From the NCBI GenBank assembly GCA_036172245.1, contig JAYWIR010000076.1:1-64000 (forward strand): a stretch of 64,000 nt of DNA, written 5' to 3'. Below are positions 5,469-64,000 of the stretch, one piece after another. The notes below the pieces were generated by a model. That model saw only the letters and a program-made list of their open reading frames with translations. It was not told the DNA's origin and made no database searches. The stretch is from Raillietiella orientalis. Its lineage: Eukaryota. Numbering within the stretch: the first letter of the stretch is position 1; every line of letters begins with the position of its first letter. Position numbers and translations under genes: made by a program.

Positions 5469-5676
5469 GTGCTCCGTTATCGTGGAGCGTATTCCCGACC
5501 GCTGCGAAAAAGAACTGGCCGCTATCGACAACAATCCCTCTGTTGACTCTGTCAACAGCAAGGGAAGCGAGCCGGCGGCGGCGTCCGTCATCGGCACCAC
5601 CATCGACGACGTAGCCTTCGCGCGAGCCGCGGAGGAGCTGGCTGACTCGTTGCAGCCGGCCGCCCCCAAGGCCAGT
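5469..5676 (+). mobile_element. Orphan ~210-bp piece of family B ORF1 between two element 5' ends
   Basis: CSVIVERIPDRCEKELAAIDNNP..AEELADSLQP matches B ORF1 at about 22080-22290 (minus). Confidence 0.85.
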
Positions 5677-5765
5677 TAGAGGACGTGTTTCTCCTTCACT
5701 CCCGAAAGAGTAGTAGGAAAGCTTTTTTCTTGTGTGTGGAGTTTTGTGTACATCGTCGGTGTCCA

Positions 5766-6459
5766 ATGGCCACGATGCCAGAGGGCACCGCGATGGAGGT
5801 AGGAGTGAGGGAGGTTAGTTCGCCCCCACAGCCTACTGAAGCAGGGGCAGCCGCCCGGAATCATCCCCGGCCACGCCAAGGACATGGATTGCCATGGTGG
5901 CCGCGCCCAGCGCGGAAGCCATGGCGGAGATGGCCGCATACAAGGCCTCCGGGTACAAGCCTTCCCTCGTGTACCAGGTAGGCGACTTGTTTGACGGCAG
6001 GACTGCACGCGCATCTAGCAGTGCGCTGCAGGAAGCGAATATACTAGAAAAGGTTCTTGACGGCCTCTCCGTCCTCAGCCGCGAGCAGCAGGTCGAGGTG
6101 GTGTGTGAGGACGTCACCTTGGCTCACCGCCTGATTCATGTGCCGCTGAACGCTGACGGCTGCAAGATCCTGCCATTGTCAATGGACCGCTCCGTGGTGG
6201 TCCACATGACTGGCATTAGCAGCGGCATGACTCGCTCTGCGGTCGGAGAAGAACTACGAAAGTTCGGGGAGGTGCACGCACTGTGGCCCAAACCCACCAT
6301 TTTTGACGGCTACGGTAGCCTTGTTGGTGGTCAGGCTGCAGCGCGGGTCACCGTAAAGGAGAATTGTGGGCTTCCCCACAAACTACAGGTGGCACAAGAA
6401 AACGTCGACTTGTGGTATGTAGGGAAGCCCCGGTATTGCGGGCATTGTGATACCGTGGG
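5766..6459 (+). pseudogene. Family A ORF1, N-terminal half, truncated by internal deletion
   Basis: MVAAPSAEAMAEMAAYKASGYKP..LWYVGKPRYCGHCDTVG, then jumps into the endonuclease. Confidence 0.85.
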
Positions 6460-8021
6460 ACGTCCAGGAGATCGAAACCATCGCGGGGGGTCGGCTGTAC
6501 TGGCAATGCGCCATCCGCAACACCTACAAAGTCCCGTTCTTCGTGAAGCCGGCCATCGACGCTGCCGTGAAGGGCGTGCGCTTCGATGACGACGGTCGGG
6601 TCGGTCAGCTCACTCTCAGCTGGTCCGACTCGATCGAATTGATCGTCACGAACGTGTACGCCCCAAGCGGGAAAGGGGGATACAGCGACCGTACCAGGTT
6701 GCTGGAAACCCTGAAGCGCGATTGGCTGGCCGACAGAATTGTGCGGAAGGCACACCTGATAGCTGGAGACTTTAATCTCCGTCTGCTGTCAGGTGAGCCC
6801 GAAGCACAAGAACGCACGGTCAACGAGTTGTGCGCTGCCATGCGCACGCGCAACTTGTTGGCGGACGCGGAGGGAATGGACCGCATCATCGATTACTTCT
6901 TCCTGGATGCCGACCTGTGCTCACGGGTCGGCAAACGGGGGAAAGTTGCGTCGACGCTGTCGAACCATTCCAGGATAATCGCCGAGGTTTGCTCGCGCGA
7001 CAAAGGACCCCCGTCCAGAGCGTGGCGGCTGCCTGGGGACTGGACGCGGATCTCAGGTGCGAAGAAACACCTTCGCGAATTCCTGAGAGCAGTCACACTC
7101 CTCAGTCTCAAAGATTGGGACCTCTTCAAGGCCTCGGTCCGCGAGTTCTGTGAGGAGTTCCCCCTGCACCACCTGCACCCCGGATTTGGGGAGGGGGCTC
7201 GGAACCATAGGGCCTATATACAGGCTCGCCGGTACGAGAGGACCCCCAATGTCCGTCGCCTGGCCGAATATCGAGCCGGGGCCGAGCGCCAAGCCTGGCA
7301 ATCCGGGTCGGTTAGCTTGCTGGACGACCAGGGCTGGGAGCAATCGGCCCCACCCGCGATCAGGCACCTCGTGCGGCATAACTATTCCTCCCTCTACGCT
7401 AGGGCACCCCCAGAGCGGGACGCATCGCGGCTCCTGCTTCCGGACGGAGCCCCGGCAATGGGGGAGGAAGGGAGGATCAGCCTCGACGAGCCTCTTTCCA
7501 CCGGTGAAATTCTCGCCGGTATTAAAAGGCTCAAGAGGCGTAAGGCGCCAGGGGAGGACGGCCTGCCTGCGGAATTCTTTCAATGCTTCGCAGCAGAGCT
7601 GGCCCCCTTGTGCTTTAGTTGACCGGGCTAATCCGAGACGAAGGCGACGCTCCCGCCTCGTTTCGGTCAGCCCGTGTGAGGCTCCTCACGAAGGGAGAAG
7701 ACCTGAGATCCTTAGGCAACTGACGTCCGATCACAATTGTGAATACGGACGCCAATCTGGTCGCTAAACTGTGGGCTTCGCGTCTAGCACAGGTGGCAGA
7801 TTCCATAATTAGCCCGGAGCAGACCTACGCTGTTCCCGGGCGAATTATGGATGCCAACCTGTTCTTCGCGAGCACATGGTTCCATGTGCAGCGCTGCCTA
7901 AGCGACAGTGGCGGAAAGATTGGCAACCCCACTTTAAGGCCGCCAGCTAAGCTAAGAATGGACACCCGGGCTGGGAAGGGGGCCGTAGCGATCGCGGTCG
8001 ATCTCCATAAGGCGTTCGATT
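6460..8021 (+). pseudogene. Family A ORF2, endonuclease to first half of RT
   Basis: NVYAP, GDFN, KAPGEDG, RPITIVNTD, EQTYAVPGR, DLHKAFD. Confidence 0.9.
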
Positions 8022-8237
8022 CTCACCCGAATTTCGCCGGGGCGTTTATTGTAAAATAAACATTTACAAAGACGTGCGGTGGCTGGACCATTGCTCCAGC
8101 CACGCACGAAGGAACACAGAGCCTGCCGGGACACCGGTTCGCAGACCGGCACGGTCCACCACGGCATCAGGGGGAAGGGGAAAAAACAAAAAACAAAACA
8201 AAAGGAAAAGAAAAAACTGGCAGGGTACAGGAAGGGA

Positions 8238-10242
8238 TCACTGTAGCTGGTGAAGCCGTTGCATCCTTTGCAGGATGCCGGCAAGCTCTTGCTGTATGCT
8301 TGGATCCAGGTGGGGCCTTCGCGGCGCTCTCCTCAGGAACTGAGAGGCTGGCTGGATGGCACCCTGGTCGCGTTGTCCTCCCGTAGCCTTGCACCAAGCG
8401 AAGACGATCGCGCGTAGGCAGCACAAAGCTGCTAACGAGGGCGCTGGCCGAAGAGCGTCAGCAACGAAGAGGGCTTTCAGTGCGTCCTTGGGGTTGTCGC
8501 AGCGTATTCCGATGGCCGCGGCAAAGCGAAACCAGAGGGGCCGAAGGGCAACACAATCCACTGGCAGGTGGGGTAGGGAGTCCCGTTCCCCAGACCTGAC
8601 GCAATTGGGGTCCACCTCTCCCCAGGTCCAGTGGTTTCGGCGGGCGTTGCAGGGGAGTCCCCAGTGCTGCAACAGGAATGAGGACTACTGCCATTTTTAG
8701 GGGAGGGTGGAGGTGTTCATTAGTACCGGGGGCCACTTCAAACGTTCATTGGGAACGTCGAGCAGCGCGCTTCAGCGAAGAAGTCCATAGGGAGGCGTAC
8801 TCGGGGTGGCAGCGTCAGTTAGCTGACCCGTCTTCCACTCTCCTATCTTCTCCTTTCCGGAGATTGTAACTGAAACCTCCCACTTCGCCGCAACATCGCT
8901 GTCCAGATCTTCCATCAGGGAGGGCAGCGCAGCAGAGAGTGGGGTTCTTCCTGCACACGCTCTTTTCTTTGGATCCTCCAGGATCTCGCATAGCGTGCAA
9001 CTTCTGTAACCCCCAAACATCAACCTTCGTTGGGAGCGTTGCATGCCGAACTGTCCTCTCGTTCGAACGGCTTCCTGCAACCAGGCACTACCGTTCAAAG
9101 GGAGACAGGTGAACAATCCTGGGTTTTTCCGGTACAGCGGGGCCACCCTCCGTAGCTGGAGTCCGCATCGGTTGACGCGGCGATGGAGTGCAAGAAACGA
9201 CGTCAGTCCCGTCTTTCCGGTGGCTTGCTGGAGAAGGAGACGTGCAGCGACGCACCAACAGGTGCACCACAACTCTGGAACGAGTGCCGACAATCGGAAC
9301 TGGATCTGAAGCTCCAGCCGCTCCGGCGTCAGGAGGCCCAGACCACCGTTTCGACGAGGAGCGCACAAGTCCTTTAAGCGGACACGGGCCCTCCCGTTGC
9401 CCCAAAAAGCGATACAGAGGAGGTCCTTTGTCCGCTTTTTAATTCTCTCTGTGGAGGGGCAAAGAAAAAGCAGGGGGCGGAAAAGAGTAGCCGCGAACTT
9501 CTTCCAAACCGCGGACCGTTCAGGCAGGAAAAACCTGCCGCCTCGGAACGGGCTGATCGCCGCCTCTACTTTTTCAAATCAGCAGGACCACGCTTCCGCA
9601 GGGGAGTATTGTTTCAACGGCACACCAAGGTACTTGAAGTACCTCACCGTGATGATCCCCAAACGGACCCAGTCCTGCTGCCCTGCCCACGCCGTACCAA
9701 CTGGCATCACGGACGACTTCGCCCTGTTCACCGTAAGTCCGGTTCCCCGATACAGCAGGTCGAAGAACTCCTCGACCACCTCAGCCGGGGTGGACATAGG
9801 GAGCAGCAGCGGAAGGTCGTCCGCGTACGCTGAAACGGCCGGCGTACCAGCACAGTGGTGCGGCAGGTGCGCCAGAGTTCCCCTGTACGCTCTCAGTACC
9901 AACTCAAAGTAGGTACTGAAGAGCAAGGGACTCAGGCTGTCTCCCTGCAGGATCCCACGCCGCACCGGCACGCCGTGCACGGTCTGCCCGCTGAAAGTAA
10001 CGTTGATGAGCGCGTCGCGCCAGCAGGAGCGCAGATAGGCCACTAATGAGGCCGGGAAGCCCAAGCGTTCCAGAAGCTCCAGAAGGAGATTCTGGTCGAC
10101 GCAATCGAATGCTTTCCGCAAGTCGATTGCGACCGCAAGGGCTCCCTCCCCCACCCGACCATCCAACCCTTGCCGGAGCACGCACCGGAATTCCGGCTGC
10201 GCACCAAGCTCCTTTCATGTTGGAGCTCTAGCCAGGTGGAAG
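8238..10242 (-). pseudogene. Family B ORF2, RT second half + C-terminal domain, disrupted
   Basis: IDLRKAFD, GILQGDSLSP, YADD, YLGVP; closely similar to 51600-53627. Confidence 0.9.
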
Positions 10243-13200
10243 TTTCCACGCGGTCACGCCGGGGCGTTTATCGCTAAACACTATGTTTTCGCGATTCCCC
10301 GCTACGGCCAATAGTTCTTTGGACCTGCCGGGAAGCCGGCTCGCAGAGCAGCTTGACTCTCCTCGGTAGCGGAGGGGGTAGGGGGTAAAAACTAAAAGAT
10401 AAATAAAAGGAATAAACGAAAAGAAACTATTTGAGGGGCCGGGAATGGATCACAGTCCGCTGGAGGAAGAGACCATCCTTTCTAGGATGCCCTCGAGGTC
10501 CCTCTTCATTGTTCCCAGATGGGTACAGCCGATCGCGTTTTGCAGGTTTCGACCAGCGTGTACGATGGGATCCCTGTCGCTGCTTCCTCTGTTGGCTGCG
10601 CTGCACGCGGCCACAATCCCTCGGAGGCAGCAAAGTGCTGCCAGGGCTGAGGCTGGTGTCAGGGCGTGCCGCACGAAGAGGAGTCTCATAACGTCTCTGG
10701 GGGTGCTGCCTACCGGCATTGAATGGTTCGTAGCAAAACGTTCCCACAAGGGCCGGAGGGCACCGCAGTCCACGAACAGATGGGGGAGGGATTGCTTCTC
10801 CCCGCACACTGCGCATTTCTGTTCAACATTCCCCCACGTCCAGTGGTGGCGGCGTGCGTTGCAGGGAAGACCCCAGTGCAACAACAACAGCGCCGTTTCC
10901 TGCCACTTTAGGGGTAGGATTGATGAATCAATGAACGACGGGGGCCACTCTAGGTCATCCGTCGGGATGCCAAGCAGCTCGCCCCATCTCCGTAGTCCAT
11001 GTGGGTGAATTCTTGGGGTTGCGGCGTCTGCCAGTTCCCTCATGGTCCACCCGCTTAGATTCTTCTCCTTGCCCGCTATCCTGCAGGATACTTGCCATCT
11101 CGGCTTCCGAATATTTTGGAGCGCCCTCCGTAGGAAGGGCAGCGCCGTGGCCAGTGGGGTCGTCTCCGCCCAAGTGCTTCTGGCGGGACACTCGAGCATG
11201 TTCCGCAGCGTGCAGCGGGTGTAGATGCCGGTAAGCAGGCCGTTGCAAAATTCTTCACTGATATTGTTTATCTTTGCCCAAGTTCCAACTGTTTCTTCCA
11301 GCCATGCGCTGGAGTTGGCAGGGCTGCAGGTCATCCACGCGTTCTCCTTTGCCAGGGTGGCCATGCGTACCAGGAGAAGTCCATCTTCTTTTTTTCCGGC
11401 CGGGGCACAGAAGAAAAGACGTGGATCCTTCAGTCCCGGACACACGTCTGGCGAGAAGGCGGGCCGGTACGCACCACGGGGTGTTCCACATATTCGCTGC
11501 GATGGCTAGAGTACGCCACCGCAGTTGTGTTTCCATTCACTCCATCGTCAGGACTCTGAAACCTCCGTCCCGACGTGGAGCGCACAATTCTTTTAAAGTC
11601 ACACGAGGCCTTCCGCCGCCCCACAGGGCGATACGTAGGAGGTCCTTCGTTCTTTTTCTTAATTCACGGGATACGGGGCAAACAAAAAGCAGGGAGCGAA
11701 GGAGGGGGGCCGCGAACGCGTTCCACACCGCGGTTCTCACAGCAAACGTCGGTTGAGAACACTCCCGACGACGCTGGTGACGGCGAAGACTGGCAGACGG
11801 TACAGCCACGAAGAAAACACGGGCGTCCCGAACGAAACGCGGTGAAAACAAAAACGAAGCGCGAAAAACCGTGCCGCGCAATGCTCCGCGCGTGTTCGGT
11901 AAAATTAGAACGTGTGGAGGCACCCGATGCCGCCTCCGGGGGAGCAATCCTTCCCCTCGCGTCCGCCGAAGCCGCGACGGTCGATGGTAAAAGCTCTGGC
12001 GAAACAGAGGGGGAACCGCGCGCCGCGCTCGACGCTATCGAGGAGGCCGCCTTCCAGCAGGCGGTGGAAGAACTCACGGCTGAACTGCAAGGCCGTGAAA
12101 AGAACTCGCGAAAAGGCTTGCAAAGGCCGGCCGCGAGGAAGGCTCCGGAGGCAGGTGAGGCCGATCCGGACGTCGAAAGTGCGTCCTCTTCAGCGGAGGC
12201 GCCACCAAAGAAGACGGGACGTAAGTCTCAGAATCCCAGGAGGCGCATCCGGATCAACAAGGAGGCGGATGAATCGGCCCCCGAGGGGGAAGCCGGCAGC
12301 GTGGGGGGCGAGGGTGGGAATATCTCATTCCCCGACACCGTGCAGCTAGCGACCCCCATGGAGGAGGATGTGCAGGTGGGTGAACCCCTACTTCCTCTAC
12401 AAGGCCCCGACGACGAATCGTCCTCCATGGAGGAGAGAGAAGCGGTGCGTAACGCACCCCCTCCTCCTAGCGTCCCTCCCGACAAGGTGGCGGGAGCCCC
12501 ATTGCCAATTTCCCAGGATTAACACCTGGACTCGCCTGTCGCCGTAGGATACGCGTAGCCTGCTGGAACGTCAACGGGCTGCGCGATGACGGCAACAGGC
12601 GGGACACGGACGACATCCTGCGTGACTTCGACCTGGCACTCCTGCAGGAGATCCACGTGATCACCGTGGAGAACGCCCAGGAGATCGAAAGGATCGCAGG
12701 GGGTCGTCTGTTTTGGCAATGCGGCGCTCGCAACACCTGTGGCGTCGCTTTTTTTATGAAGCCAGCGGTCGCTTCCTTCGTGAAGGACGTAGGATTCGAC
12801 AAGGACGGTCGGGTTGGCCAGCTTATCCTTACGTGGTCCGACTCGATGGACCTTGTCGTGACTAATGTGTACGCTCCGAGCGGAGGACGCGGGTACGGGG
12901 AACGTTCCCGGTTGCTCGAAACCCTGAAGCGCGACTGGCTGGCGGATACAAACGTACGCAAGGCACATCTGATCGGTGGGGATTTCAACATCCGCCTGCT
13001 CTCAGGTGTGCCTTGCAGGCAAAAAGACGCAACCAACGAGTTGTGCGCCGCTATGCGTACGCGCAACTTGCTGGGAGACCTACCGGAAATGGCCCAAAGC
13101 GTAGACCACGTCTTTCTTGACGCCGACCTGTGCCCACGTGTCGGCAGACGAGCGAAACTTCCGTCGACGCTATCGGACCACTTCCGGTTGATAATCGAAA

Positions 13201-14627
13201 TTATGTCACGCGACAAAGGACCACCATCCAGGGCGTGGCGTATGCCAGGGGACTGGACGCGCATCTCCGGTGCGGCGGAACATCTCCGTCAGTTCCTGAG
13301 AGGCGTCATCCTCCGCAACCTCGAAGACTGGGACCGCATGAAGGTCTCGGTCCGCGAGTTCTGCGAGGATTTCCCTTTGCACCGCCTGCCCCAAGGATTT
13401 GGTGAAGGGGCCCGAAACGAAAGGGCGTATTTGCACTCCCGTCGTTTCGCAAGGACCCCTGACATCCGTCGCTTGGCGGAATACAAAGCCGGGGCCGAGC
13501 GTCAAGCATGGCAAACCGGAACGCCCATCGTGCTAAACGATTTGGACCAGGAACACTCGGAGCCGGCTTCGATACGTCGCCTCGTGCGCGGATTTTACTC
13601 CTCTCTCTACGCAGGGGCACCTGCGGAGTGGAACGCTTCGCAGCGCCTGCTTCCAGATGGAGCCACGGTCATAGATGAGGAGGAGAAAGAAAGCCTCGAC
13701 AAGCCTTTTACGACCGGGGAAATCATCACCGCGATGAAAAGGCTTAAAAGGCGTAAGGCGCCAGGGAAGGACGGCCTGCCGGCGGAGTTCTTTCAGTGCT
13801 TCGTCGTAGAGCTGACCTCCCTGGTGCTCAAATTGACATCGCTGATCCGAGACCAATAGGAGGTTCCTTCCTCGTTTCGGACAGCCAGGGTGAGGCTCCA
13901 TTCTAAGGGAGGAGACCTTAGGAAATTAAGCAACTGGTGTCCGATCACCATAGTGAACACGTACGACAAGCTGCTGGCCGGAATGTGGGCTGCGCGGCTG
14001 GGACAGGTAGCTGACAGCTTCGTCAGCCCGGAACAGACGTACGCTGTTCCCGGGCGAAGCATGGAAGCGAACCTGTTCTTCGCCAGCACATGGTTCAATC
14101 TACAATACGAAGAAAAAGAGAAGAAAAAAAGAATAAAATGACGACAAACCTAATTTGGGTACGCCAGTGCGGCAAACCAGGGACTGCCGGGAAGGGAAGG
14201 GGGCTTTAGCGATCGCAGTCGATCTGCACAAAGCGTTCGATTACGTGGACCAGAAACTCCTTCTGGAGCTCCTGGATCGCATGGGCTTCCCGGACACTTT
14301 ACTGGGTTATTTGCGAGCCTGCTGGCGCAATGCGATCATTAACGTATTTTTTAGAGTACAGCATGTGTTCGGCGTACCGGTGAAACGCTGCATCCGGAGG
14401 GGAGACACCCTGAGTCCCCTACTCTTCAGCACCTATTTCGAACTGGTGCTGAGAGCATACAGGGTGACATTGGCTGCCCTGCCAAGCTCGTGTCCAGGAA
14501 AGCCGGGCGTGTCGGCGTACACTGACGATCTTTTGCTCCTGCTGCCCATGTCCGCCAAGGATTCGGCAGTCGAAGATTTCTTCGAATTGTTGAGCCATGG
14601 AACAGGACTACAGGTGAACAGGACGAT
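10243..14627 (-). mobile_element. Tx1-like element, family D type, 5'-truncated with 5' inversion (3' part 10243-11732 on minus; inverted part 11740-14627 on plus)
   Basis: Flanked by perfect 12-bp direct repeat GCCAGGTGGAAG (10231-10242, 14628-14639); 3' hairpin 10271-10243. Confidence 0.88.
12519..14627 (+). pseudogene. ORF2 endonuclease + RT (inverted segment), disrupted
   Basis: WNVNG, LLQE, GGDFN, SDH, KAPGKDG, DLHKAFD, YTDD. Confidence 0.9.
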
Positions 14628-16055
14628 GCCAGGTGGAAGCGTGGAACAGGATCGCCTCCATGCTTCGTCATATGCAGCATGTGTCAGTTCCGTGCTAAGG
14701 AAGATGTTGGCAACCCGTCCCAACCTCTCTGCTTAAACCTTAGCTAGCAACTTGGCGTCCGCATTCACTATTGTGATGACACGGCAGTTGTTCATGCTCC
14801 TGAGATCTCCTCCCTTAGGGAGGAGCCGCACCTTTGCCCAACGAAACGAGGCGCGAACGTCAACTGTCTCGCGTATCAGCAAGGTGAGTTGCAGTACCAG
14901 GAGGGTGAGCTCAGCCGCGAAAGCTTAGTTTAACTCCGCGGGCAGGCCGTCCTCTCCTGGAGCCTTGCGCCTCTTGAGATTTCCGATGGACCAGAGGATC
15001 TCGTTCAGCGTGAAAGGCTCGTCGAAGGTCTTTCTCTCCTCCTCCCCGGTCGCTGGAGCGCTTTCCAGAAGCAGGAGTCGTGAGACGTTCCTCTCCGGAG
15101 GTGCAGTGGCATACAGGGAGGAGTAGTAACTCAACAGCAGGCCGCGGATTTGGGCGGGTGCCGAGTGCTCCTGGCCCTGATCGTCAGGGAAGGTGGCCGA
15201 ACCGGACTGCCAAGCATGCCTCTCGGCTCCCGCTTTGTATTCCGCCAGCCTGCGGATGTCAGGGGTCCTGGCGTAACGACGGACCTGCAGGTAGGCTCGT
15301 TCGTTACGGACCCCAGTCCCAAAACCCGTAGGTAGGTGGTGCAGAAAGAACTGGTCGCAGAACTCCTGGACCGATCGCTTGAAGCGGTCCCAATCCTGGA
15401 GTGTCCGCAGCCTGAAGCTCCGTATGAACGTGCGAAGATGTTACGCTACGTCCAAAAGCTTCCGCCAGTCCCCTGGGAGATGCCACGCTGACGAGGGGGG
15501 GCCCCTGTCGCGCGGATGGATCTCAAGGACTAGCGGGCGATGGTCGGACAGCTCGGCGGTAACTTGCCGCGCCTGCCCAAGCGAGGGCACAGGTGCTCGT
15601 CAAGAAACACGTGGTCAATGCTGTCCTCCATCCTCAGTGCACTGACCAACAAATTACAGGTGTGCACTGCCATGCACACCTCGTTGACGAGGTCACGCTT
15701 CTTTTTCTGCCCATCTGGTTTCAGGCGAACGTTAAAAGCGCCTGCAACCAGATGGGCATTCCGCACGCCTACTCCGATCAGCCAGTCGCGCCGGAGGGCA
15801 AGGAAAAACTCTTTCCTCGCCCTCCTGTTGATCAGATCCGCGCCGCTCGGTGCGTACACGTTTGTGACGATCAGATCGATCGAGTCGGACCACCTGAAAG
15901 TCAGCTGGCCGACACGACCGTGATCGTCGAACCGTACGCTCCGAGCCGCGGCCCCGACAGCTGGCCGAAGCAGGTAGGCGACACCGCAACTTTTCGGTCT
16001 CCCACACCTGTACCATAACCGCCCTCCGGTGATCCGTTCGATCTCCCGGTCTCGT
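14628..16055 (-). pseudogene. Family B ORF2, endonuclease to start of RT, disrupted
   Basis: YAPSG..FNVRLKPDGQKKKR..SDH..KAPGEDG..NADAKLLAKV; homologous to 44600-45593. Confidence 0.88.
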
Positions 16056-16169
16056 ACAGTACAGACGTGTTTCCGCGTCTATCCGCGCCAACGATGGGGC
16101 AACTTTGTGCCTGCGTTTTTGCTCGCACTTGTGTGTTCCTGTGCAATCTGCCAAGTAGCATAGTGCAAC

Positions 16170-21000: not shown

Positions 21001-21190
21001 GATTGTCGCAACCATGTTTTGCGTTCGCGCTATTGCGAAGGCCCGCTACGCCCTGGAGTTTTCAGCGCAGCGAAGGGAGGCTCACCTGCTTGCAGCTCAA
21101 TTCATGGAGAAAGCTGCATGGTGGTCTCATCTCCGTGACAAGATGAATGAGTTCATCATCGGGATACATCGCCGGTTTACAGACCTTTGA
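18074..21190 (+). pseudogene. Family F ORF2 (EN with internal deletion near 18230, RT, C-terminal domain)
   Basis: NVNG, SDH, KAPGEDG, WRPITLVNSD, DLHKAFD, YADN, CLRCGEIQSFPHLLLNC. Confidence 0.88.
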
Positions 21191-23330: not shown

Positions 23331-23424
23331 CGCTGCCTGATCGACCACCGATCCACACGACGCTAGCACTGGGGGAGACTGCTTGGCACAAGGAGCACCG
23401 AGAAAACACGTCCGCCCTAGAGCG

Positions 23425-40524: not shown

Positions 40525-40529
40525 TGCCT

Positions 40530-48700: not shown

Positions 48701-49400
48701 GGGCACACTTCGAATATCAACCGGAAATGGTCAGACAGCTCCGCCGCAACTTTCCCTCGTTTGCCGACCCGTGAACACAGGTCGACATCCAGGAAGACGT
48801 GGTCGATGCTGCTGACCATTTCCGAAAGATCCCCTAACAAGTTGCGCGTGCGCATGGCGGCGCACAACTCGTTAGCCGTCCGTTCCTGTGCGTGTGGCTC
48901 ACCTGATAGCAGGCGGAGATTAAAGTCTCCCGCTATCAGGTGAGCCACGCGCACGTTCGCTTCCGCCAGCCAGTCGCGCTTCAGGGTTTCCAGGAACGCC
49001 TTACGTTCCTGGTACCTGGTAGGACCGCTCGGAGCGTACACATTTGTTACGACGAGGTCGATCGTGTCGGACCACCTGAGAATCAGCTGGCCGACACGAC
49101 CGGCTTCGTCGAAGTGCACGCCCTTCACGGCTGCGTCGACTGCCGGCTTCATAAAAAACGCGACGCCGCAGGTGTATCGGGTGCCGCATTGCCACATCAG
49201 CCGTCCCCCTGCGATCCTTTCGATCTCCTGGGCGTTCTCCGCGGTGATCACGTGGATCTCCTGCAGGAGTGCCAGGTCGAAGTCACGCAGGGTGGCGGCC
49301 GTGTCCCGTCTGTTGCCGTCGTCGCGCAGCCCGTTCACGTTCCAGCAGGCGACGCGTAATCGACGGCGACAGGCGAGCCCAGGTGTTACTCCTGGGAAAG
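45800..49400 (-). pseudogene. Family D ORF2 (AP endonuclease, RT, C-terminal Cys/His domain, ~1200 codons); in-frame stops at 47434 and 46484
   Basis: ORFs 47434-49524, 46484-47425 and 45800-46411 are in one frame; all canonical EN and RT motifs are present. Confidence 0.93.
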
Positions 49401-53846: not shown

Positions 53847-55815
53847 TCGATGGCCGGCTTCACGAAGAACGCGACCTCGCAGGTATTGCGGATGCCGCAT
53901 TGCCAGTACAGCCGACCCCCCGCGATCGTCTCGATCTCCTGGACGTCTGCCGCGGTGATCACGTGGATCAGTTGCAACAGGGCCAGGTCGAACTTCCGCT
54001 GGTTGTCTGTTGTATCTCGCCTGTTACCGTCGTCGCGGAGCCCGTTGACATTCCAACAGGCGGCGCGAATCCGACGGCGACTGGCTAGCCCAGGTGTTAC
54101 TCCTGGGAAGATGGCAGTGCGGCGTCCGCCACCTGCTGAGGCGGGACGCTAGGTGGAGGAGCGGGGTCAGGTGCTGAAGGCACCTGGTCCCCCTCCTCCA
54201 TAGGAAACTGTACGTCGAGCGAGTCACCCATAGGTGGGGTCGCGCCTACCTGTTCGCCCTCCTCCTTGGGGGCGGGCTGTTCAGGGTCGGCGCCTGCAGG
54301 GAGGACTTTACCTCCCTGTTCACCCTCCTCCATGGGGGTGGCCGGATCGACGGCTTCCGAGCGTGGGAATTCCTCCTCCGAATTTCCCACGCTGGCGACG
54401 GCTTCCGTCTTCTCCTCCTCGCTGGTGGAGGGGAGGCGCCTCCTGGGCTTTTGGGACTTGCGTCCCGACTTCCTGGGGGGTGCCTGCGAGGAGGAGGATC
54501 TACTTCCGGCCCCCAGGTCTAACTCACCTGTGGAAGCTTTCTTCGCCGGAGCCGGCCTACGCACGGCCTTGCGCGAGGGGTTCTCACGCTCGGCCAGCGG
54601 AAACGGCAAGGGGAGGATCGACGCTCCGGGTGGCAATGTCGGGAACGACGATTCGTTCCAGTGCCACGGTGCATTCGCGCAAATTTTTCGAGCGCGGACC
54701 GGGTTTTTTCGGCTTACCGGCCGTCTTGCGCTCTTTGCTCTCCGCGGGTGGGAGTTTCCTTGGCTTTCTGGCCTCTACAAGCTGCCATCCCTCTTCGCCT
54801 TCCACCGTTTCAGAAGGTCTATCCTCTGGCTTACGCGCCGGAGGTTGAGGTGTTGGCAGCTTGTGCTGGCCCTTTTCTACTTTAGGTCTAGAGACCTTTG
54901 AAGCGCGTTTCCCCTGCGCTTTTTTCGCGGCATGGGGAACCGGGATGAGGCGTTTGGGGCACACGCGCCGAACGTGGCCCCGCTCCCCGCACAAATGGCA
55001 TTGTATATTGGGACACCTTTTACGTAGGTGTCCCACGGTATCACAATGCTTGCAATACCGGGGCTTCCCTACATACCACAGGTCGACGTTTTCTTGCGCC
55101 ACCTGTAGTTTGTGGGGAAGCCCACAATTCTCCCTTACGGTGACCCGCGCTGCAGCCTGCCCACCAAAAAGGCTATCGAAGCCGTCGAAAATGGAGGGTT
55201 TCGGCCACAGTGCGTGCACCTCACCGTACTTCCGTAATTCCTCACCAACCGCTGACCGCGGCATGCGGCTGGTGATGCCAGTCATGTGGACCACCACGGA
55301 GCGGTCCATTGATACTGGCAGGATCTTGCGGCCGTCTACGTTCCGCGGCACATGGATTAGGCGGTGAGCCAAGGTGACATCTTTGCAGACCATCTCGATC
55401 TGCTGCCCGCCGCTGAGGACGGAGAGGCCGTCCAGATCCTTCTCAGTAACATTCGCGTCCTTCAACGCTTTGCTGAAGGCGCGCGCTGTCCGGCCGTCGA
55501 ACAGGTTGCCTACCTGGTAGACTAGCGATTGCTTGTACCCGGAGGCCTTGTATGCGGCCATCTCCGCCATGGCTTCTGCGCTGGTCGCGGCCACCATGGC
55601 GCTCCATGTCTTCGGCGTGGCCGGGGATCATTCCGGGGCGGCTGCCCCTGCTCCAGTAGGCTGTGCGGGCGAACTAGCCTCCCCCACTCCCACCTATATC
55701 GCGGTGTCCTCTGGCGTCGTGGCCATTGGACACCGACGATATACACAAAACACCACACACAAGAAAGCGCTTTCCTACTTCTCTTTGAGGAGTGAAGGAA
55801 AAACACGTCCTCCAA
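53847..55815 (-). mobile_element. Tx1-like element, family A, 5' end, ORF1 (55726-54097, one frameshift/deletion) and start of EN
   Basis: 5' motif 55810-55801; CKHCDTVGHLRKRC, CHLCGERGHVRRVC; WNVNG; cut at FVKPAID. Confidence 0.92.
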
Positions 55816-57260
55816 CTAGCCTCGGACGGGTCTGGCTGCAACGATGCAGCCAGCTCCCCCGCCGCACGCTCGAAGGCGGCGTCATCGATCACGGTCTCCA
55901 TGACGGACGCTTCCGTTGGTTCGCTCCCCACGCTGTTGACATTTTCAACAGTGCTCGTCGGTAGCAGCGATTTCTACCTTGCGGCGTTCGGCGGGAACGC
56001 GTTTTACGACGACGCTGCATTCTTTTAAATTCTCGCTAACCTGCTGCTTTTGATTTTGGTGAGCGAGCTTTTTTTCAATTCGTCGTTCTTTCTTCGACTT
56101 TTCCTTTTTCGCTGTGGCTACTTGCCATTCCGGCATCTGTGCGCTTTTGTCGATCTTTTCGGCATTCGTTGTTGGGGTGTCGGCTGCGGCCTGGACCACG
56201 GGTGTGGGTGGCACAGCTTGAGCAGCAGCCTTCGCCGCCAGCCTTTTCTGTAGCAGCCGCGCGCGTTTTGTAAGGTTCCTTGCGGAAACCACGCGCACAG
56301 CGGATTGTGGATACACTTCCTTCGTGTGGTCCATTGTCCCGCTTACCTGGCACTGTATGTTGGGGCACCTCCTTTTGAGGTGCCCCGACGTACAGTGCCA
56401 GGTATGCAGAAGCCACAGTATGTGGGCTTCCCCACGTTCCAGAGGTCGACGCTTTCTTCGCCGACCACCTGTTTGTAGGGAAGGGTAGAGCCCTCCCGAA
56501 CGGTTACACGGGCAGCCGTGAGGCCGCACTGAACTGTGGTATAGTCCTCGAAAGGACTAGGCTTGGTCCATACTGCATGGACCGTGCCTTCTTTTCCCAA
56601 CTTGGCTCGTAACTGTTCTTTCCGCATCCGCGCGGTAACTCCTAAAAGGTGGACCAACATACTGTGGTCCGCCGTAATGGGAAAAAGCCTGCGTGTCTCC
56701 ATTACCACGGAGAATTTGAGCAGACGTTGGGACAGATCTGCATGTTTGCAGATCACCTCTACGTACTGCCCCCCGCTACGAATGGTCATAGCGCAAAACT
56801 CCTCCTCTTTAACATCGAGAGCGCTCATTTCCTTCGAAAAGGCGAACGCACTCTCAGAAGAAAACAAATTTCCTACCTTGTAGAATAGTGATGGGTTATA
56901 CCCCTCTTCCACATAGGCAGATAATTCCGCCGCAGCTGCAGGCGATGGCGCCGACACGACGGCGCTGCACGCCCGCGCTGACGCGAAGACCGGTTTTGTG
57001 GGGGCGGACGCCATACCTCCTTCGCCACTGGAGGCGACGTTGCCGCCACCCCCTGGCACTCCACCTTCTCTAGAGGCGACGTTGCCGCCGCCACCTGGCA
57101 CTCCATTTCTTCAGGAGGCGACGTAACCACCGCCTTCTCACACGCACTGGTGGTCGTGTCAGGCATTCCTGCCTGATCGACCACCACCACACGCGAAGCC
57201 TACTCCTAGGGACGGTTTCCAGCATGAGGAGCATCGAGGAAACACGTCCGTTCTAACCGA
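55816..57260 (-). mobile_element. Tx1-like element, family B, 5' end and partial ORF1
   Basis: 5' motif 57249-57240; AAELSAYVEEGYNP..; cut at LQPDPSEAS. Confidence 0.9.
57025..57135 (-). repeat. 42-bp tandem repeat (about 3 units) in family B ORF1 N-terminus
   Basis: GAGGCGACGT at 57031, 57073 and 57115. Confidence 0.9.
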
Positions 57261-57276
57261 CGTAAAGCTTTCGATT

Positions 57277-60215
57277 TTTACCCGGATTTCTCCGAGTCGT
57301 TTATTAAAAAAATAAACTTTGTAAACAAATCATTAATGGCTGTGGCAATGCTCCAGCCAGAAGCTAAGAACCACGGCGCCTGCCAATTCACCGGTTTCTA
57401 GACCGGTACGGTCCACCAAGGCAGCAGGGGAAAGGGCAAAAACAAAAAAACTGAACAAAAAAAAAAAACAAAGGGTGGGAGGAACGGGAAGGGATCACTG
57501 TTGCTGCTGGGGCCGCTTCATCCCTCTCAGGATGCTGCCAAGCTCTTGTTTGTTGTGAACATCCAGGTGGGGCTATCGCGACGCCCTCCTCAGGAATTCG
57601 GAGGCACACTGGATGGCTTCCTGATCGCTAGGTCCTCCCGTCGCCGTGCTTCAGGCGGCGACGATCCCACGAAGGCAGCACAAGGCTGCTATGAAGGAAG
57701 ATGGCCGCAGGGCGTCGGCAACGAAGAAGGCTTTTAGTGCGTCCCTGGAGTTGCTGCAAGGGATACCGATGGCCGCGGCAAAGCGGAACCAAAGGGGCCG
57801 AAGGGCAACACAATCCACTAGGAGGTGGGGGAGGGACTCCCGTTCCCCGCACCTTACACAATTGGGATCCATTGCTCCTCAGGTCCAGTGGTGTCGACGG
57901 GCGTTGCGGGGAGTCCCCAGTGCTGCAACAGGAATGCCGACTCTTGCCATTTCATGGGGAGGATGAAAGTGTTCATAAGAATCGGGGGCCACTTCAGATG
58001 TTCAATCGGAACATCCAGCAGCGCTCCCCAGCGCAGAAGTCCATTAGGAGGCGTACTCGGGGTCGCAGCATCAGTTAGCTCGCCCGTCTTCCACTCTCTC
58101 TGCTTCTTCTCCTTCCCGGAGATTTTTATTGTAACCTCCCACTTCGCCGCAACATCGCTGTCCTGATGTTTAACTAGGGAGTCCAGCGCAGCAGCGAGGG
58201 GGGTTCTTCGTGACCACGCTCTCTTCTTAGGATCCTCCAGGATCTCACGGAGCGTGCAACTTCTGTAACACCCAAACAGGAACCTTCGTTCCTGATGGGA
58301 GGGTTGCATGCTGAACTGTCCCCACGTACGAACGGTTTCCTGCAACCAGGCACTACTGTTCGCGGGAAGACAGGTGATCCATCCTCGATTTTTCCTTTCC
58401 AGCGCAGCCACCCTCCGTAGCTGAAGCCCACATCGGTTGATGCGGCTTCGATGGAGTGCAAGAAACGACGTAAGTCCCGTCTTGCCGGTGGCTTGCTGAA
58501 GGAGGAGACGCGCAGGGACGCACCAACAGGTGCACCACAACTCCGGCACAAGTGCCAAAATTCAAAACTGGAACTGGAGCTCCAGCCGCTCCAGCGTCAG
58601 GAGGCCGAGACCGCCGTCCCGACGAGGAGCGCATAAATCATCCAGAGGCACACGTGGCCTCCCGCTGCCCCAGAGGGCGATGCGAAGTAGGTCTTTTGTC
58701 CTCTTTTTAATGTCACGGGGACATGGCACACAAAAAGCAGGGGGCGGAGGATGGGAGCCGCGAAGGCGTTCCACACCGCGGCCCGTTCCGGCAGAAGGAA
58801 CTTGCCTTCCAGGAACGGGCCGATTGCCAACTCTACCTTTTGGAGACGACCTGTTTAGGCTTCTGACTAGCAGAAGTCCCCCAACGGAACGCCGAGGTAC
58901 TTCAAGTACCTTTCCGTAAGGATCCCCAAGCGGATCCATTCAGGACGTTCGACCCACGTCGTACCAACCTCCACCACCGATGACTCCGCCTTATTTACCC
59001 GTAGTCTAGTCCCGCGGCTTAGCAGATGGAAGAAATCCTCGACTGCGGCTGCCTGGGCGGACATGGGCAAAAGGAGCAGAAGATCATCGGCGTTAGCCGC
59101 TACGGACGGCGTACCTGGACACGAGCTTGCCAGCGCAGCCAATGTCACCCTGTGTGCTCTCAGCACCAGTTCGAAATAGGTGCTACAGAGCAGGGGACTC
59201 AAACTGTCACCATGCCGGATGCCGCGCCTCACCGGCACGCCGAACACGTGCTGTCCTCTGAAAAGCAAGTTGATAATCGCATTGCGCCAGTAGGCGCGCA
59301 GGTAGACCGATAAGGTGTTCGGGAAGCCCATGCGATCCAGGAGCTCCAGAAGGACTTCCTGGTCCACGCAATCGAACGCTTTGTGCACATCGACTGCGAT
59401 CACTAGAGCCCCCTTCCATTCCCGGTCGTCCCTTACTTGCTGCGCTGCCGCTCCCAAATCCGGTTTGTCGACATTTCATTCTTTTTCCAAATTTTTCTCG
59501 CGTTGCACATGGAACCATGTGCTTGCGAAGAACAGGTTCGCTTCCATGCTTCGCCCGGGAACAGCGTACGTCTGTTCCGGGCTGACGAAGCTGTCAGCTA
59601 CCTGCCCCAGTGGCGAAGCCCACAGTCCAGCCAGCAGCTTGACGTCCGTGTTCACATTCGTGATCAAACGCCAGTTGCTTAATTTCCTGAGGTCTCCTCC
59701 CTTAGGGAGGAGCCTCACCCTGGCTTACCGAAACGAGGAAGGGACATCGCCTTGGTCTCGGATCAGCGATGTCAATTTGATCACCAGGGGGGTCAGCTCT
59801 GCCGCGAAGCTCTGATAGAACTTTGCTGGCAGGCCGTCCTCCCGTGGCGCCTTACGCCTCTTGAGCCTTTTAATAGCGGTGATGATTTCACCGGTCGTAA
59901 AAGGCTCGTCGAGGCTTTCTTTCTCCTCCTCCCCTATTGCCGGGGCTCCATCTGGGAGCAAGCGCCGCGAGACGTCCCACACCGCAGGTACCCTGGCGTA
60001 AAAAGAAAAGTAAAATCCACGCACGAGGCGACGTATCGATGCCGGGTCCGAGTATTCCTGGTCCAGGTCGTCCAGCACGCTGGGTGGCCCGGATTGCCAG
60101 GCTTGACGCTCGGCCTCGGCTTTGTACTCGGCCAAGCGACGGATGTCAGGGGCCCTCGCGAAATGACGGGTGAGCAAACACGCTCTTTCGTTGCGGGCCC
60201 CCTCACCAAATCCCC
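57277..60215 (-). mobile_element. Tx1-like ORF2 and 3' end; apparent recombinant (A/D-type RT, B-type C-terminus and 3' UTR)
   Basis: Similarity switches near 58580-58620; 3' hairpin 57305-57277. Confidence 0.85.
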
Positions 60216-60219
60216 TTTG

Positions 60220-62651
60220 TGGAGAGAGGACGTGCTTTTCCTGCGCTCCGCCTGCGTGGCAAGGCGAGTGGTTTTTCCTTGAGTGGTTTCTGCGTGCACA
60301 TCGTCGGTGTCCGATGACAGCGTTGCCAGAGGACACCGCGATGGAAGTAGGCGTGGGGGATGCTTGTTCGTCCCCACAGCCTACTGGATCAGATGCATCC
60401 GCCCCGGAATCGTCCCCGGCGACGCCAAGGTCATGGAGCGCCATGGTGGCCGCGCCTAGCGTGGAAGCCATGGCCGAGATGGAAGCCTACAAGAAAGCGG
60501 GGTATAAACCCTCGCTAGTCTATAAAGTAGGCAACCTTTTCGATGGGCGAACTGCACGCGCCTATACGAAGGCGCTGCAGAACGCATATATTTTCGAACA
60601 AGATCTTGACGGCCTCTTCGTCCTCAGCGGCGGGCAGTGAGTCGAGTTGGTATGCAAAGATATCACCTTGGCCCAACGCCTGATCACAGACCCGCTGATC
60701 GTTGATGGTCGGAAAATCTTGCCGGTGACGATGGACTGCTCGGTAGTGGTCCATCTCACTGGTATCTCCAGTCGCATGACTAGGTCAGCGGTTGGAGATC
60801 AGTTGCGAAAGCACGCAGAAGTGCACGCGTTGTGGCTGAAGCCCACGATTTTCCAAGGCTACAATAGCCTTTTCGGAGGTCAAGCTGCGGCGCGTATCAC
60901 CGTAAAAGAGAGTGGTGCGCTTCCCCACAAGCTGGAGGTCTTCCAAGAAGCGGTGGACCTCTGGTACGTGGGGAAACCCCAATTTTGTGGCTACTGCAAT
61001 GCAGTAGGGCATCTACGAAAAAGGTGCCCGAACATTGTGTGCCACCTATGCGAGGAAAAGGGTCACGTTCGGCGCGTGTGCCCCAAGTGCCCCACCCCGG
61101 TGCCCTCTGCCTCCAAAAAGGCGCAGGGAAAACGTGGAAAGCTGGTAGAAAGACCAGTTCGCGAAAATAACCGTTCCCAACTGCCAGCCTCCCTTCCTCC
61201 CGTACAGGCGTCGGAGGAAAGAGCTCCCGTGGACGCGGGATTAAAGGAGGGTTGGCAGCTAGTTCAGGCCAGAAAAGAAAAAAAGGAAGTGATAGCAGAA
61301 GAAAAGTAAGAGAAGAAAACTGCCGGCAAAAAGAAAAACGCCGCGCCGCTTTCAAAAAAACAACTCCGCGAATGCTCGGTGGCATTGGAACGCTTAGCCG
61401 TTCCTGCCGAGGCCGCCCGCGGCAATCTTCACGAAACAGCTGATGCGGACGCGATGGATACTCGCGTGGACGAGCCCATTCTACGTTTAGAGGGTGAGAC
61501 GCGGGACTCGCGCGCCGACAGCCAGGACGTCGCGTTCGATAAGGTCGCGGAGGAGCCCGCGGCAACGTTCGCCGTCAGCTATGACGCCGCGCTCGATAAG
61601 GTCGCGAAGCAGCCCGCATCAACGGTCGCCGCTGGCGAAGACGCGGCCTTCGAGAAAGCGGCGGAGGAGCTCGCAGCAACGCTCGCCGAGCGCGAAACCC
61701 CGTCGCGCAAGGGAGTACGAAGGCCGGCTCCGACGAAGATGGCCCCCGCAGGTGAGTGCGACCTGGGGGCCGGAAGCGCATTCTCCTCCTCAGAGGCACC
61801 CCCCAGGAAGTAGAGACCCAAGTCCCAGAAACCCAGGCGGCGCCTCCCCTCTACCAGCGAGGAGGAGAAGCCGGAAGGCAGCGACAGCGTGGGAATCCCG
61901 GACGGGAACTCTCACGCCCGGAAGCCGTCGAGTCCGCCACCCCCATGGAGGATGGTGAGCAGGAAAGTGAAGTCCCCCCTGCAGTCGGGGAACCTGAGCA
62001 GCCCGAACCCATGGAGGTGGGCGAACAGGTAGGCGCGACTCCACCTGCGGGTGATCCGGCCGACCCGCCGGAACGGTTGGAGGGGGAATAACGGGTGCCT
62101 TCAGTACCTGTCCCCCCTCCCCCTCCAACTAGCGTCCCGCCCTAGCAGGTGGCGGACGCCGCATCACCGTTTTCCCAGGACTACCACCTGGGCTCGCCAG
62201 TCGCCGTCGGATTTGCGCGGCCTATTGGAATGTCAACGGGCTGCGCGACGACGGCAACAGGAGACATACGGCCGACACCCTGCGTGAGCTCGACCTGGCG
62301 CTGCTGCAGGAGATCCACGTGATCTCGGCGGCGGATGTCCAGAAAACAGAGACCATCGCGGGGGGTCGGCTGTACTGGCAATGCGGCTGCCGCAACACCT
62401 GCAGGGTCGCGTTCTTCGTGAAGCCTGCCATCGACGCTGCCGTAAAGGGCATGCGGTTCGATGACGACGGTCGGATCGGCCAGATGATTCTCAGCTGGTC
62501 CGACTCGATCGACCTAATCCTCACAAACGTGTATGGCCCCAGCGGCAAACAGGGGTACCGCGACCGCACCAAATTGCTGGAAACCCTGAAGCGCAACTGG
62601 CTGGCGGATACCAATGTGCGAAAGGCTCACCTGATAGCGAGAGATTTCAAT
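60220..62651 (+). mobile_element. Tx1-like element, family A type, 5' end, ORF1 and EN up to (G)DFN
   Basis: 5' motif 60228; CGYCNAVGHLRKRC, CHLCEEKGHVRRVC; WNVNG, LLQE. Confidence 0.92.
61526..61690 (+). repeat. 57-bp tandem repeat (3 units) of the DAAF..AAEELAATL helix in ORF1
   Basis: Units start at 61526, 61583 and 61640. Confidence 0.88.
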
Positions 62652-64000
62652 CGAGTGCGGACGTGTTTTTCTTCGCTCTCGTCTCCGTGCTTTCATCCGC
62701 TTCATCTTGGCGTCGTACATTTTGACGACGATGTCGAACCAACCCGGAGCTACTGAAGTTGGAGGAACAGCATCCGGATCTGCAATCGCGGAACCGACGG
62801 CCGCCTCCACTTCGTCTTTCTCGCCAATGGAGAGGAGTTTTGCTGACGTTGCTGCCACAGCAGCCGTCAAAGGGAAACCACTCGACGAGTCGGAGTTGCG
62901 GGAATACCTAGCCCAAGGCTATAGACCTGCTCTCCGATATAAGGTGAGTGGTTTTCTTTCTGCGCGCGACGGGAATCAGTTCAACGGTGAACTGACCCGT
63001 GTTGGCGTGCGGGAGTACGACCTCCTCGCCATTATGCCCGTGAAGGATATGATCTATTTCAAGGTGCGTTGCAAAGACGCTGCACTTGTGCAACGCTTGC
63101 TGCGCACCCCGTTGTCGATACGTGGCCAGAAGTTCTTCCCGGCCTCCATGGACGACTCATTTGTGGCGGAGATTTTCGACATCGAGTCGGAAATCTCCGA
63201 TATTGATATTCGGAATGCGTTGGCGAAATTCGCCACGGTCCATGCGCTGTGGAGGGTGCGTAGCAACCTCAAGGACTTCCCGTCCATACACAGCGGAAGT
63301 CGCTGGAGTCCGGCTTACAATGCCGGACCGCCGTCTGCTACCCACCAAACTACAGGTGAAAGACACGGTCGTTCGCCTGCGGTCCGCGGGCAAAGTAAGA
63401 ACGTGCGAGCAATGAGGGAAAAAGGGGCATTGTTTGGATAAATGCCCCTCTGGAAAATGCCGTTATTGCAAACTATCCGGACACCAATTGAAAAATTCCC
63501 CGGATCTTTTGCGAAAAAAGGCAGCCGCGGAGATCCATCTTAAAAAACAAAGCGCGGATAAAAAAAAAAAATCTGCGAAAAACCTGGAGACCCTACGGCA
63601 CAAATTCCGTAAAAACGCGAAGCGGAATGTCGCCCCAAAGCAGCAGGATAACTCATACGCAAAGCCCTGCGCGCCCCCTCTCGCGGCAGGGAAGCCGCAA
63701 AAGAAAGGGTGCGGGGAATCCGGGGCAATGGTAAGTCCCCCTTATGCGCAATCGCTGTCCTTCGCAAGCACGCCCGGCTCTCTCGGAGTTCGAGCAACCG
63801 GCGGGGACGCCAATGGACAACGGCGGTAAGGACACTTCCAGTACCGTCAGATCCATTCCTTCACCTCCTGCAGTGGCTGAGAAGCCCAAATCAAGTAAGA
63901 AGGGTTGTGCCGTGTCGACTTCGAAAGTCGGCAAAAAAGAATCCGCGTCGCGATCCAACATCGCGAAAGCGGAGAAAAATCTCACGCCGTCGCAGTCGGA
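62652..64000 (+). mobile_element. Tx1-like element, family F, 5' end and ORF1 (runs off window)
   Basis: 5' motif 62659; GYRPALRYKVSG..LVQRLLRTPL, as in ORF1 at 16170. Confidence 0.9.

Follow-up and report, generated by a model that had tools for sequence, protein, structure and literature searches.

Nested LINE families with recurrent insertion junctions in a 64-kb stretch of Raillietiella orientalis DNA

The first 64,000 nucleotides of contig JAYWIR010000076.1 from Raillietiella orientalis (assembly GCA_036172245.1; positions 1 to 64,000, forward strand), hereafter referred to as the window, consist almost wholly of long interspersed nuclear elements (LINEs). Outside positions 27360-39225, the window resolves into nested insertions. 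A reading made from the sequence alone (the original prediction) had claimed that these elements form a community of Tx1-like retrotransposons that appear to target one another's genes. The present analysis found that diverged LINE families in the window lie inside one another's coding sequence, reciprocally in the case of two families designated A and B, and that some junctions recur at the same nucleotide in independent hosts. The pattern is probably that of sequence-preferring LINE lineages landing in copies of their sister families.

Elements, lineages and conserved ends

The protein domains of the elements were examined by a Pfam scan of 44 open reading frames (ORFs) of at least 200 amino acids in the window, which detected Exo_endo_phos (PF03372) in four, RVT_1 (PF00078) in six and zf-CCHC in two. 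In the element designated R, PF03372 (E=1.8e-12) and PF00078 (E=3e-12) were found together on one ORF of 697 amino acids. The elements are apurinic/apyrimidinic endonuclease (APE)-type LINEs with an ORF1 and an ORF2 that encodes endonuclease (EN) and reverse transcriptase (RT). They also bear the marks of target-primed reverse transcription (TPRT): target-site duplications (TSDs) flank R (15 bp) and X (12 bp), the copies E17, E22, and B1 are 5'-truncated, and X contains an inversion. Members of the L1/Tx1 group carry one or more CCHC knuckles in ORF1 and a C-terminal zinc-binding domain (zf-RVT) after the RT. In the window, zf-CCHC scored above the cut-off of 20.8 bits in two ORF1 pieces (24.0 and 22.5 bits), and zf-RVT scored below the cut-off of 27.5 bits in two ORFs (25.4 and 24.0 bits). 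Word-indexed protein searches with the ORF2 of R returned 3 and 9 matches, the best of which was 69% identical and came from a metagenome contig. An exhaustive search returned 82 proteins at E<=1e-30, all but two of them at 41% identity or less; among ten that were looked up, a single one, from a sea turtle, had a name. The nearest relatives with a named source were unnamed or hypothetical proteins from a sea turtle (35% identity), a clownfish (30%), and a monitor lizard (27%), and a protein atlas search returned generic endonuclease and RT clusters only. Membership of the Tx1 clade, a label given in the first reading, is putative.

Lineages were defined by pairwise identity in six reference windows, with R (45594-51493, minus strand), a full-length A-superfamily LINE of 5.9 kb, as the coordinate reference (ref) for all copies. 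R has one stop in ORF1 and one frameshift and one stop in ORF2. The A superfamily comprises A1, A2, E23, R, X, E13, and E14, which are 70-87% identical among themselves. In the B family, B1 and B2 are 88-96% identical, and E21 and E16 stand at 74-79%. The F superfamily (F, E2, E24, and E17) shows 40-60% identity at the protein level; E24 is 59% identical to F in amino acids, and E17 is 47% identical to the C-terminus of F. Two lone lineages, E1 and E18, fall outside these three groups, and E18 shares 27% amino-acid identity with R. The copy E22 (57277-60227, minus strand), which extends from its 3' end to ref ~2975, is a mosaic because its RT is nearer to the A superfamily (83-85% identical to A-superfamily copies) while its 3' end and tail are B-type. 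This implies recombination or template switching between families.

The ends of the elements are recognizable by short conserved motifs. The 5' motif GGACGTGTTT occurs 11 times in the window at one mismatch or fewer (4.2 expected; none of 100 shuffles reached 11). Ten of these matches are element 5' ends, and the other (46037-46046) lies inside ORF2 of R and marks no element end. The 3' motif AATAAACGCCCCGG occurs 9 times at two mismatches or fewer (0.5 expected), each time at a 3' end. A degenerate tenth 3' end at 44560-44592 and a degenerate eleventh 5' end at ~39445 were found by reading the sequence. The flank of each of these ends is either LINE ORF1 or ORF2 sequence or, across a spacer of 12 or 27 nt, the end of another element. 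The earlier claim that every mapped terminus adjoins another LINE copy was borne out in this way, by 10 clear 5' ends, 9 clear 3' ends and one degenerate end of each kind.

Poly(A) was present at none of the ten 3' ends in the window. The order at these ends is AATAAA, a short GC inverted repeat, and a family-specific tail of 3 to 19 nt. The inverted repeat CCCGG/CCGGG is paired in 86% of cells, which reflects sequence conservation. A 3' stem-loop was rejected as a proven structure, RNAalifold having picked another hairpin of 4 bp and the CCCGG/CCGGG helix being without compensatory change; the 3' element is described here as a conserved inverted repeat that may have a structural role. Across lineages with proteins only 30-60% identical, conservation extends over ~25 nt at the start of the elements (GGACGTGTTT..GCTCC) and ~35 nt at their end (AATAAACGCCCCGG..CCGGGTG), for example at 5681, 23413, 25550, and 62659 (5' ends) and at 8022, 21545, and 45594 (3' ends). 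Conservation of this kind suggests strong shared constraints on transcription start and RT recognition. A metagenome scan for the 3' end (AATAAACGCCCCGG, a gap and CCGGGT) returned 5 loci, none of them similar to the element proteins; these are located on GC-rich bacterial contigs and are read as chance matches. An Rfam search of the window gave no match.

Nested insertions and recurrent junctions

The left nest begins with H3 (5469-5680, plus strand), a 212-nt fragment of B-family ORF1 that extends from a site at the KEC codons to the site entered by A elements (the A site). H3 is 83% identical to the ORF1 of B2, which is uninterrupted at both sites. At the A site lies A1 (5681-8021, plus strand), an A-family LINE that extends from its 5' end to the RT KAFD codons. 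At these codons A1 is interrupted by B2 (8022-23413, minus strand), and beyond B2 it is likely continued by E13 (23414-25537, plus strand). E13 starts at the KAFD codons of an A-superfamily RT, ends with the 3' end of the element, adjoins the B2 5' end at its left edge and is the probable remainder of A1. An internal deletion of ~1.1 kb is present in A1 at ~6460, in the second half of ORF1; the 88%-identical A2 retains this stretch (53962-55030). B2 is a full-length B-family LINE in three pieces (8022-10242, 14628-16045, and 21546-23413) and is split by X and F. X (10243-14627, minus strand) is one insertion from the A superfamily; it entered a variable RT stretch of B2 and has an inversion of the twin-priming type. 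It is bordered by a perfect 12-bp TSD (12/12; GCCAGGTGGAAG, 10231-10242 and 14628-14639), and its site is empty in B1 at ~51614-51625. The inverted part of X runs from ref 4213 down to 1168 (11734-14627) and the sense part from ref 4412 to the 3' end (10243-11733), with an internal gap of ~200 nt between the two, an L1-style rearrangement in a LINE without poly(A). F (16063-21545, plus strand) is a full-length divergent LINE of 5.5 kb located antisense in the B2 endonuclease region; it was inserted without a TSD and with a 17-nt filler at 16046-16062.

The right nest begins with E21 (55811-57249, minus strand), a B-family 5' part that includes its 5' end and reaches as far as the A site in ORF1, where it is truncated by the 5' end of A2. 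A2 (53851-55810, minus strand), an A-family LINE 88% identical to A1, extends from its 5' end to the endonuclease region and is truncated in turn by the 3' end of B1, which lies antisense at the KPAID codons of A2 (53850). B1 (44593-53850, plus strand) extends from the GDFN codons of the endonuclease to the 3' end in two pieces (44593-45593 and 51496-53850) and is split by R, which entered the RT of B1 at the NADAKLLA codons, in antisense orientation. The TSD of R is a perfect 15 bp (15/15; ACGCCAAGTTGCTGG, 45579-45593 and 51496-51510), and the site is empty at ~14746-14761 in B2, which is 90% identical to B1. The same order, B, A, B and A, each inside the one before, is thus seen in both halves, four deep. 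The junctions are true insertions, and two of them (R and X) have both a TSD and an empty-site paralogue in the window. The reciprocal nesting of A and B that the original prediction described was found at four places, with B in A at 8022 and 53850 and A in B at 5681 and 55810. The second-level insertion site differs between the nests, being KAFD for B2 and KPAID for B1. Nesting of B in B or of A in A was not seen in the window.

The ends of B-family elements recur at the KAFD codons of the RT, always antisense, in four junction sets (8021/8022, 23413/23414, ~39444, and 57249-57277). B2 and E22 terminate, with their 3' ends, at the identical base, directly after the TTCGATT of the host sequence ...GC(G/T)TTCGATT. 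The 5' ends of B2, E21, and E16 lie ~15 to 27 nt upstream on the same strand and are all antisense. Such an offset between 5' and 3' junctions would be the geometry expected of a TSD. One of the hosts, E15 (39226-39444, minus strand), is an old decayed RT fragment that starts at the KAFD codons (here QAFY) and adjoins the 5' end of E16 (39445-40530, plus strand), a B-family 5' part, 77% identical to B2, with a degenerate 5' end. Another is an RT remnant of 27 nt (57250-57276, plus strand) ending in AAAGCTTTCGATT (KAFD), which lies between the E21 5' end and the E22 3' end and to which both of these copies are antisense. E22 and E21, separated by these 27 nt, form a head-to-tail pair, as do E13 and E14 (25550-27359, plus strand), which are separated by a 12-nt spacer (25538-25549). 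The spacers are of TSD length, as would be expected if one nick site had been used twice. E14 consists of an A-superfamily 5' end and ORF1 and is 3'-truncated at the low-GC block described below.

Two B-type 3' ends lie elsewhere, so that the claim that B inserts at KAFD stands for the four junction sets and fails for B1 (at KPAID in A2, 53850) and for E1 (in E2, 2390). E1 (1-2390, plus strand) is a LINE 3' part cut by the window start; the part present covers the RT from near the KAFD codons onward as well as the 3' end, has a B-like tail (GGGTGACAAT), and is located antisense within E2. The targets of B1 (GCC ATC GAT T) and E1 (GCC GAC GAT T) both resemble that at KAFD (GCG TTC GAT T). In B ORF1, the 5' ends of A1 (5680/5681) and A2 (55810/55811) lie in sense at the same base, at which B2 is empty. 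A fixed B ORF1 site had been proposed for A, and it holds for A1 and A2; their relatives R, X, and E23 are found at other sites. Recurrence at the same nucleotide and in one orientation in independent targets was seen for B2/E22 and for A1/A2.

Two further sites bear two junctions each, as had been predicted. At the KEC codons of B ORF1, an 8-10-nt overlap is bracketed by E2 with its 5' end (5468/5469) and by E17 with its 3' end (40530/40531), both antisense. E2 (2391-5468, minus strand) is an F-like LINE that extends from its 5' end, which adjoins H3, to mid-ORF2, where the E1 3' end truncates it. E17 (40531-41250, minus strand; right edge approximate) is a 5'-truncated F-superfamily 3' part that cuts E16 at the ORF1 KEC codons. 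At the GDFN site in the endonuclease, the 3' end of E18 (44592/44593) and the 5' end of E24 (62658/62659) bracket ~10 nt, both in sense. E18 (41300-44592, plus strand; left edge approximate) is a highly divergent LINE with endonuclease and RT and a degenerate 3' end, and its doubled AAAAATTTC tail adjoins the GDFN codons of B1; this junction could alternatively reflect a chance 5' truncation of B1. E23 (60228-62658, plus strand) is an A-superfamily LINE that extends from its 5' end to the GDFN codons, where it is truncated by E24 (62659-64000, plus strand), an F-superfamily 5' end and ORF1 cut by the window end. The predicted prevalence of antisense insertion was also seen, with 11 of the 16 junction events antisense to the host.

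The clustering of junctions was compared with a chance model of uniform placement on a 5.9-kb element in two orientations, in which two junctions within 30 nt count as a close pair. The 16 events include 9 close pairs (0.62 expected), and no run out of 200,000 simulations came to 9. Dropping the five events that were boundary-only or in the same remnant, except the B2 5' side, which was never counted separately, left a conservative set of 12. In this set, two pairs coincide within 2 nt (p=0.0003).

The remaining part of the window is a block of 11.9 kb (27360-39225) with 43-47% GC (55-63% elsewhere), which lies between the truncated E14 and the decayed E15. It contains an RT-like ORF (36191-37330; PF00078, E=1.2e-13) with best relatives at ~30% identity. 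Apart from this ORF, the block showed no informative Pfam match, and no long direct or inverted repeats were found in it. Antisense to the ORF2 of E13 there is an open frame of 651 codons (23637-25592, minus strand) without a Pfam match, which probably arises incidentally from GC-rich coding sequence. ORF1 of R (51132-51303), E21 (57030-57124), and E23 (61509-61689) contains tandem repeats (24/48, 42, and 57 nt), which are located in N- or C-terminal parts and differ between families.

Interpretation and competing explanations

The explanation favored here, which is considered fairly probable, is a transposon island built by sequence-preferring LINE lineages landing in sister copies. Five or more related lineages of APE-type LINE (the A superfamily, B, the F superfamily, E1, and E18) would have built the island by successive TPRT, and each would nick a preferred short DNA sequence at which its RNA 3' tail is able to pair. 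B-type elements would nick just after ...GC NNN CGATT, the antisense of the RT K-A-F-D codons in most sister families, and this sequence would also be present, in degenerate form, at two other coding sites. A would be directed to one B ORF1 site, F-type elements to the KEC and GDFN codons, and R, X, and E23 to other sites with a putative shared CCA..TGG-like core. Such targets would lie in conserved multicopy coding DNA of sister families, and new copies would therefore land in old ones, often at the same nucleotide. A site used again would yield a head-to-tail pair with a spacer of TSD length.

The tails of B-type elements (GGGTGA N AATCGA) overlap their four targets by 2 to 6 nt. The sequence AATCGA[AC][ACG]GC occurs 7 times in the window; six of the occurrences are KAFD sites, two of which are occupied. 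The motif GCNNNCGATT has 17 sites in the window, 4 occupied and 13 unoccupied. The target looks like a sequence of ~10 nt, set by nick preference and RNA 3'-end pairing, that coincides with the antisense of a conserved motif in the RT. The RT of B itself carries a near-identical stretch, GCATTCGATT, and the sequence thus gives no argument for self-avoidance. This evidence fits recognition of a short sequence, and targeting of each other's genes as such goes beyond it. We infer that endonuclease and 3'-end pairing may set the site, that the sister copies may act as a harbor, and that the pattern may hold genome-wide; the interpretation of a mutual safe harbor is only partly supported. A stronger form can be entertained only tentatively, namely a guild of at least five sister LINE lineages, each of which would have evolved a nick specificity for a different stretch of ~10 nt in the ORF1, endonuclease or RT of the others, such as the catalytic KAFD motif in antisense, GDFN or KEC.

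Several observations weigh against the favored explanation. Site specificity in the strict sense would place nearly all copies at one target, and B1, E1, R, X, and E23 lie elsewhere. The fixed site applies only to A proper (n=2), since R, X, and E23 occupy three further sites. KAFD is far from saturated, since the window holds eight further KAFD copies without an insertion. In five of the 16 events, which are less secure, the junction is defined by a host 5' boundary only and could be a chance 5' truncation, and in the conservative set the same two pairs, counted within 30 nt, reach p=0.04 only. The 4/17 occupancy of GCNNNCGATT is circular, as these occupied sites were the source of the motif. 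Since the window is almost wholly LINE, any insertion in it would fall into a LINE by default. Compensatory change was found in none of five pairs of the 3' inverted repeat, and the helix was not better than shuffles. The two copies of the presumed 16-nt TSD of B2 agree at 13 of 16 positions. In addition, the B-family 5' junctions have ~11 extra nt with a YTAG core (23414-23424, 57250-57260, and ~39445-39450) between the 16 host nt at the nick and GGACGTG.

This ~11-nt stretch resembles RT sequence located ~41 nt from the nick in intact copies, and it could derive from an ancestral flank, carried along as a leader, or from a recurrent deletion. A 41-nt TSD of B2 carried by E5 and E13 was considered and rejected, as the first 11 nt mismatch; a 16-nt TSD (13/16) plus 11 nt fits better.

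An unlikely alternative is regional targeting, in which a compartment (heterochromatin or a centromere-like LINE cluster) attracts the elements and a weak nick and microhomology preference sets the base. The apparent mutual targeting would then be a by-product of the area in which landing is permitted or to which it is directed. The nearly complete LINE content of the window is consistent with this, as is the account that Zepp-type L1 elements form one cluster per chromosome through insertion into existing copies (PMC8226300). B-type ends at three host positions, A relatives at four or more, and 13 empty GCNNNCGATT sites out of 17 point the same way. However, junctions recur at the exact nucleotide and share both orientation and 5' junction offset; two pairs fall within 2 nt among the 12 conservative events (p=0.0003), and the head-to-tail pairs have spacers of TSD length. 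A short preferred motif would be needed regardless, so that regional targeting overlaps with the sequence-preferring landing favored here.

It is improbable, and was made more so by the analysis, that a few ancestral junctions were copied by segmental duplication, composite retrotransposition or gene conversion. Such copying is suggested by the H3|A1 and E21|A2 junctions, which share one position within a single 86%-identical self-alignment, by the odd ~11-nt stretch common to the B-family 5' junctions, and by mosaics such as E22, which show inter-family recombination. However, a self-alignment runs across just one pair, 5680/55810, of the 26 junction positions examined. At this pair the hosts are identical at 151 of 206 positions (73%), whereas the A inserts are identical at 688 of 778 (88%; Fisher p=4e-7), and H3 is closer to the empty B2 copy (172/207, 83%) than to its junction counterpart E21 (73%). 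For the KAFD site, identity is 57% between the hosts E13 and E15 and 77% between the inserts B2 and E16. The nests also differ at the second level, with B2 at KAFD and B1 at KPAID. Inherited composites had been named with the original prediction as the finding that would undo it; host and insert divergence proved incongruent at two sites, and this check did not overturn the prediction. The pattern is opposite to that of copied composites, and the events are independent on sequence comparison.

The assembly was compared with the only sequencing run found (X1), which contains 9% of the sampled words. From this run 546 contigs were placed on the window, mostly 85-95% alike; their joints and loose ends were paralogue cross-matches, and no breakpoint profile was obtained. 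One X1 contig bridges E23|E24, with 36 nt on the host side; over 1,376 nt it differs from the window at 53 letters and has 2 gaps. The run may not be independent of the source. Unspecific nesting in a transposon graveyard with chance coincidence, or repeat mis-assembly, is very improbable, for although dense repeats are prone to assembly error and X1 covers little of the window, perfect TSDs with empty-site paralogues are not produced by mis-assembly, the clustering is far above uniform expectation, and the X1 contig, possibly not independent of the source, crosses E23|E24.

Relation to known systems and significance

Site-specific LINEs such as R1, R2, TRAS/SART, Keno, Mutsu, and Utopia target rDNA, telomeres and small-RNA genes. 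As in these site-specific elements, the LINEs of the window show the same nick in independent targets, putative pairing of the RNA 3' end, and head-to-tail pairs. Unlike these elements, which use host multicopy genes or repeats, they have other LINEs as their targets. The inversion with deletion known as twin priming is said to have been described for L1 by Ostertag and Kazazian in 2001; X has the same layout between perfect 12-bp TSDs, here in a non-poly(A) LINE with a specific tail.

Kojima has reported that Xenopus Tx1L inserts into the DNA transposon Tx1D (Kojima, 2015, PMC4494074; reviewed in PMC6719617). Crocodilian Tx1 families prefer Mariner-N4_AMi, specific long terminal repeat (LTR) retrotransposons, or a position ~300 bp from the 5' end of Harbinger (PMC4494074; PMC6719617). 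As far as these accounts go, the elements of the window resemble the Tx1-group LINEs in being APE-type, in recurring at a defined place in another multicopy transposon, and in having different targets in sister families. Unlike Tx1L and the crocodilian families as described there, their targets are coding motifs of sister LINEs, the nesting is reciprocal (A in B and B in A), and it is at least four levels deep. Compared with the target-specific Tx1-group LINEs covered by these sources, specificity looks looser here, with several sites per family.

In the green algae Chlorella, Coccomyxa, and Chlamydomonas, the L1-type LINEs Zepp and ZeppL insert into their own copies and form one cluster per chromosome (PMC8226300). 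The likeness lies in LINEs nested in LINEs and in an island of LINEs only. Zepp is portrayed there as a single self-nesting family, mostly in arrays of 5'-truncated 3' ends, whereas several diverged families cross-nest here. Unlike those arrays, the window has 11 5' ends in 64 kb and no poly(A), and insertion points recur at defined codons. The nested families are 40-80% identical, and nesting within one family in 5'-truncated poly(A) arrays, the mark of Zepp/ZeppL-type elements, was not found in the window. No cross-targeting LINE network was found in a literature search in which coverage of subscription journals and Repbase Reports was thin and absence is weak evidence.

Overall, insertion of LINEs into other transposons is known already from Tx1L, the crocodilian Tx1 families and Zepp. 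The window further shows several diverged sister LINE families landing in one another's conserved coding motifs, in both directions and more than once; it contains its own empty-site controls, and recurrence is exact to the nucleotide. The elements also provide candidate short-target APE endonucleases for studies of specificity. If the pattern holds genome-wide, it would offer a natural case for the diversification of endonuclease and RNA-tail specificity among sister LINEs, for the growth of transposon-only islands, possibly centromere-like, and for competition between transposon families through mutual disruption. If the guild is real, the families would live on one another, and each new copy would damage a rival and at the same time offer a new target for insertion. 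Self-propagating islands of alternate layers (B, A, B and A), of low cost to the host, would be the outcome, and the lineages would form a network of reciprocal parasitism of transposon on transposon.

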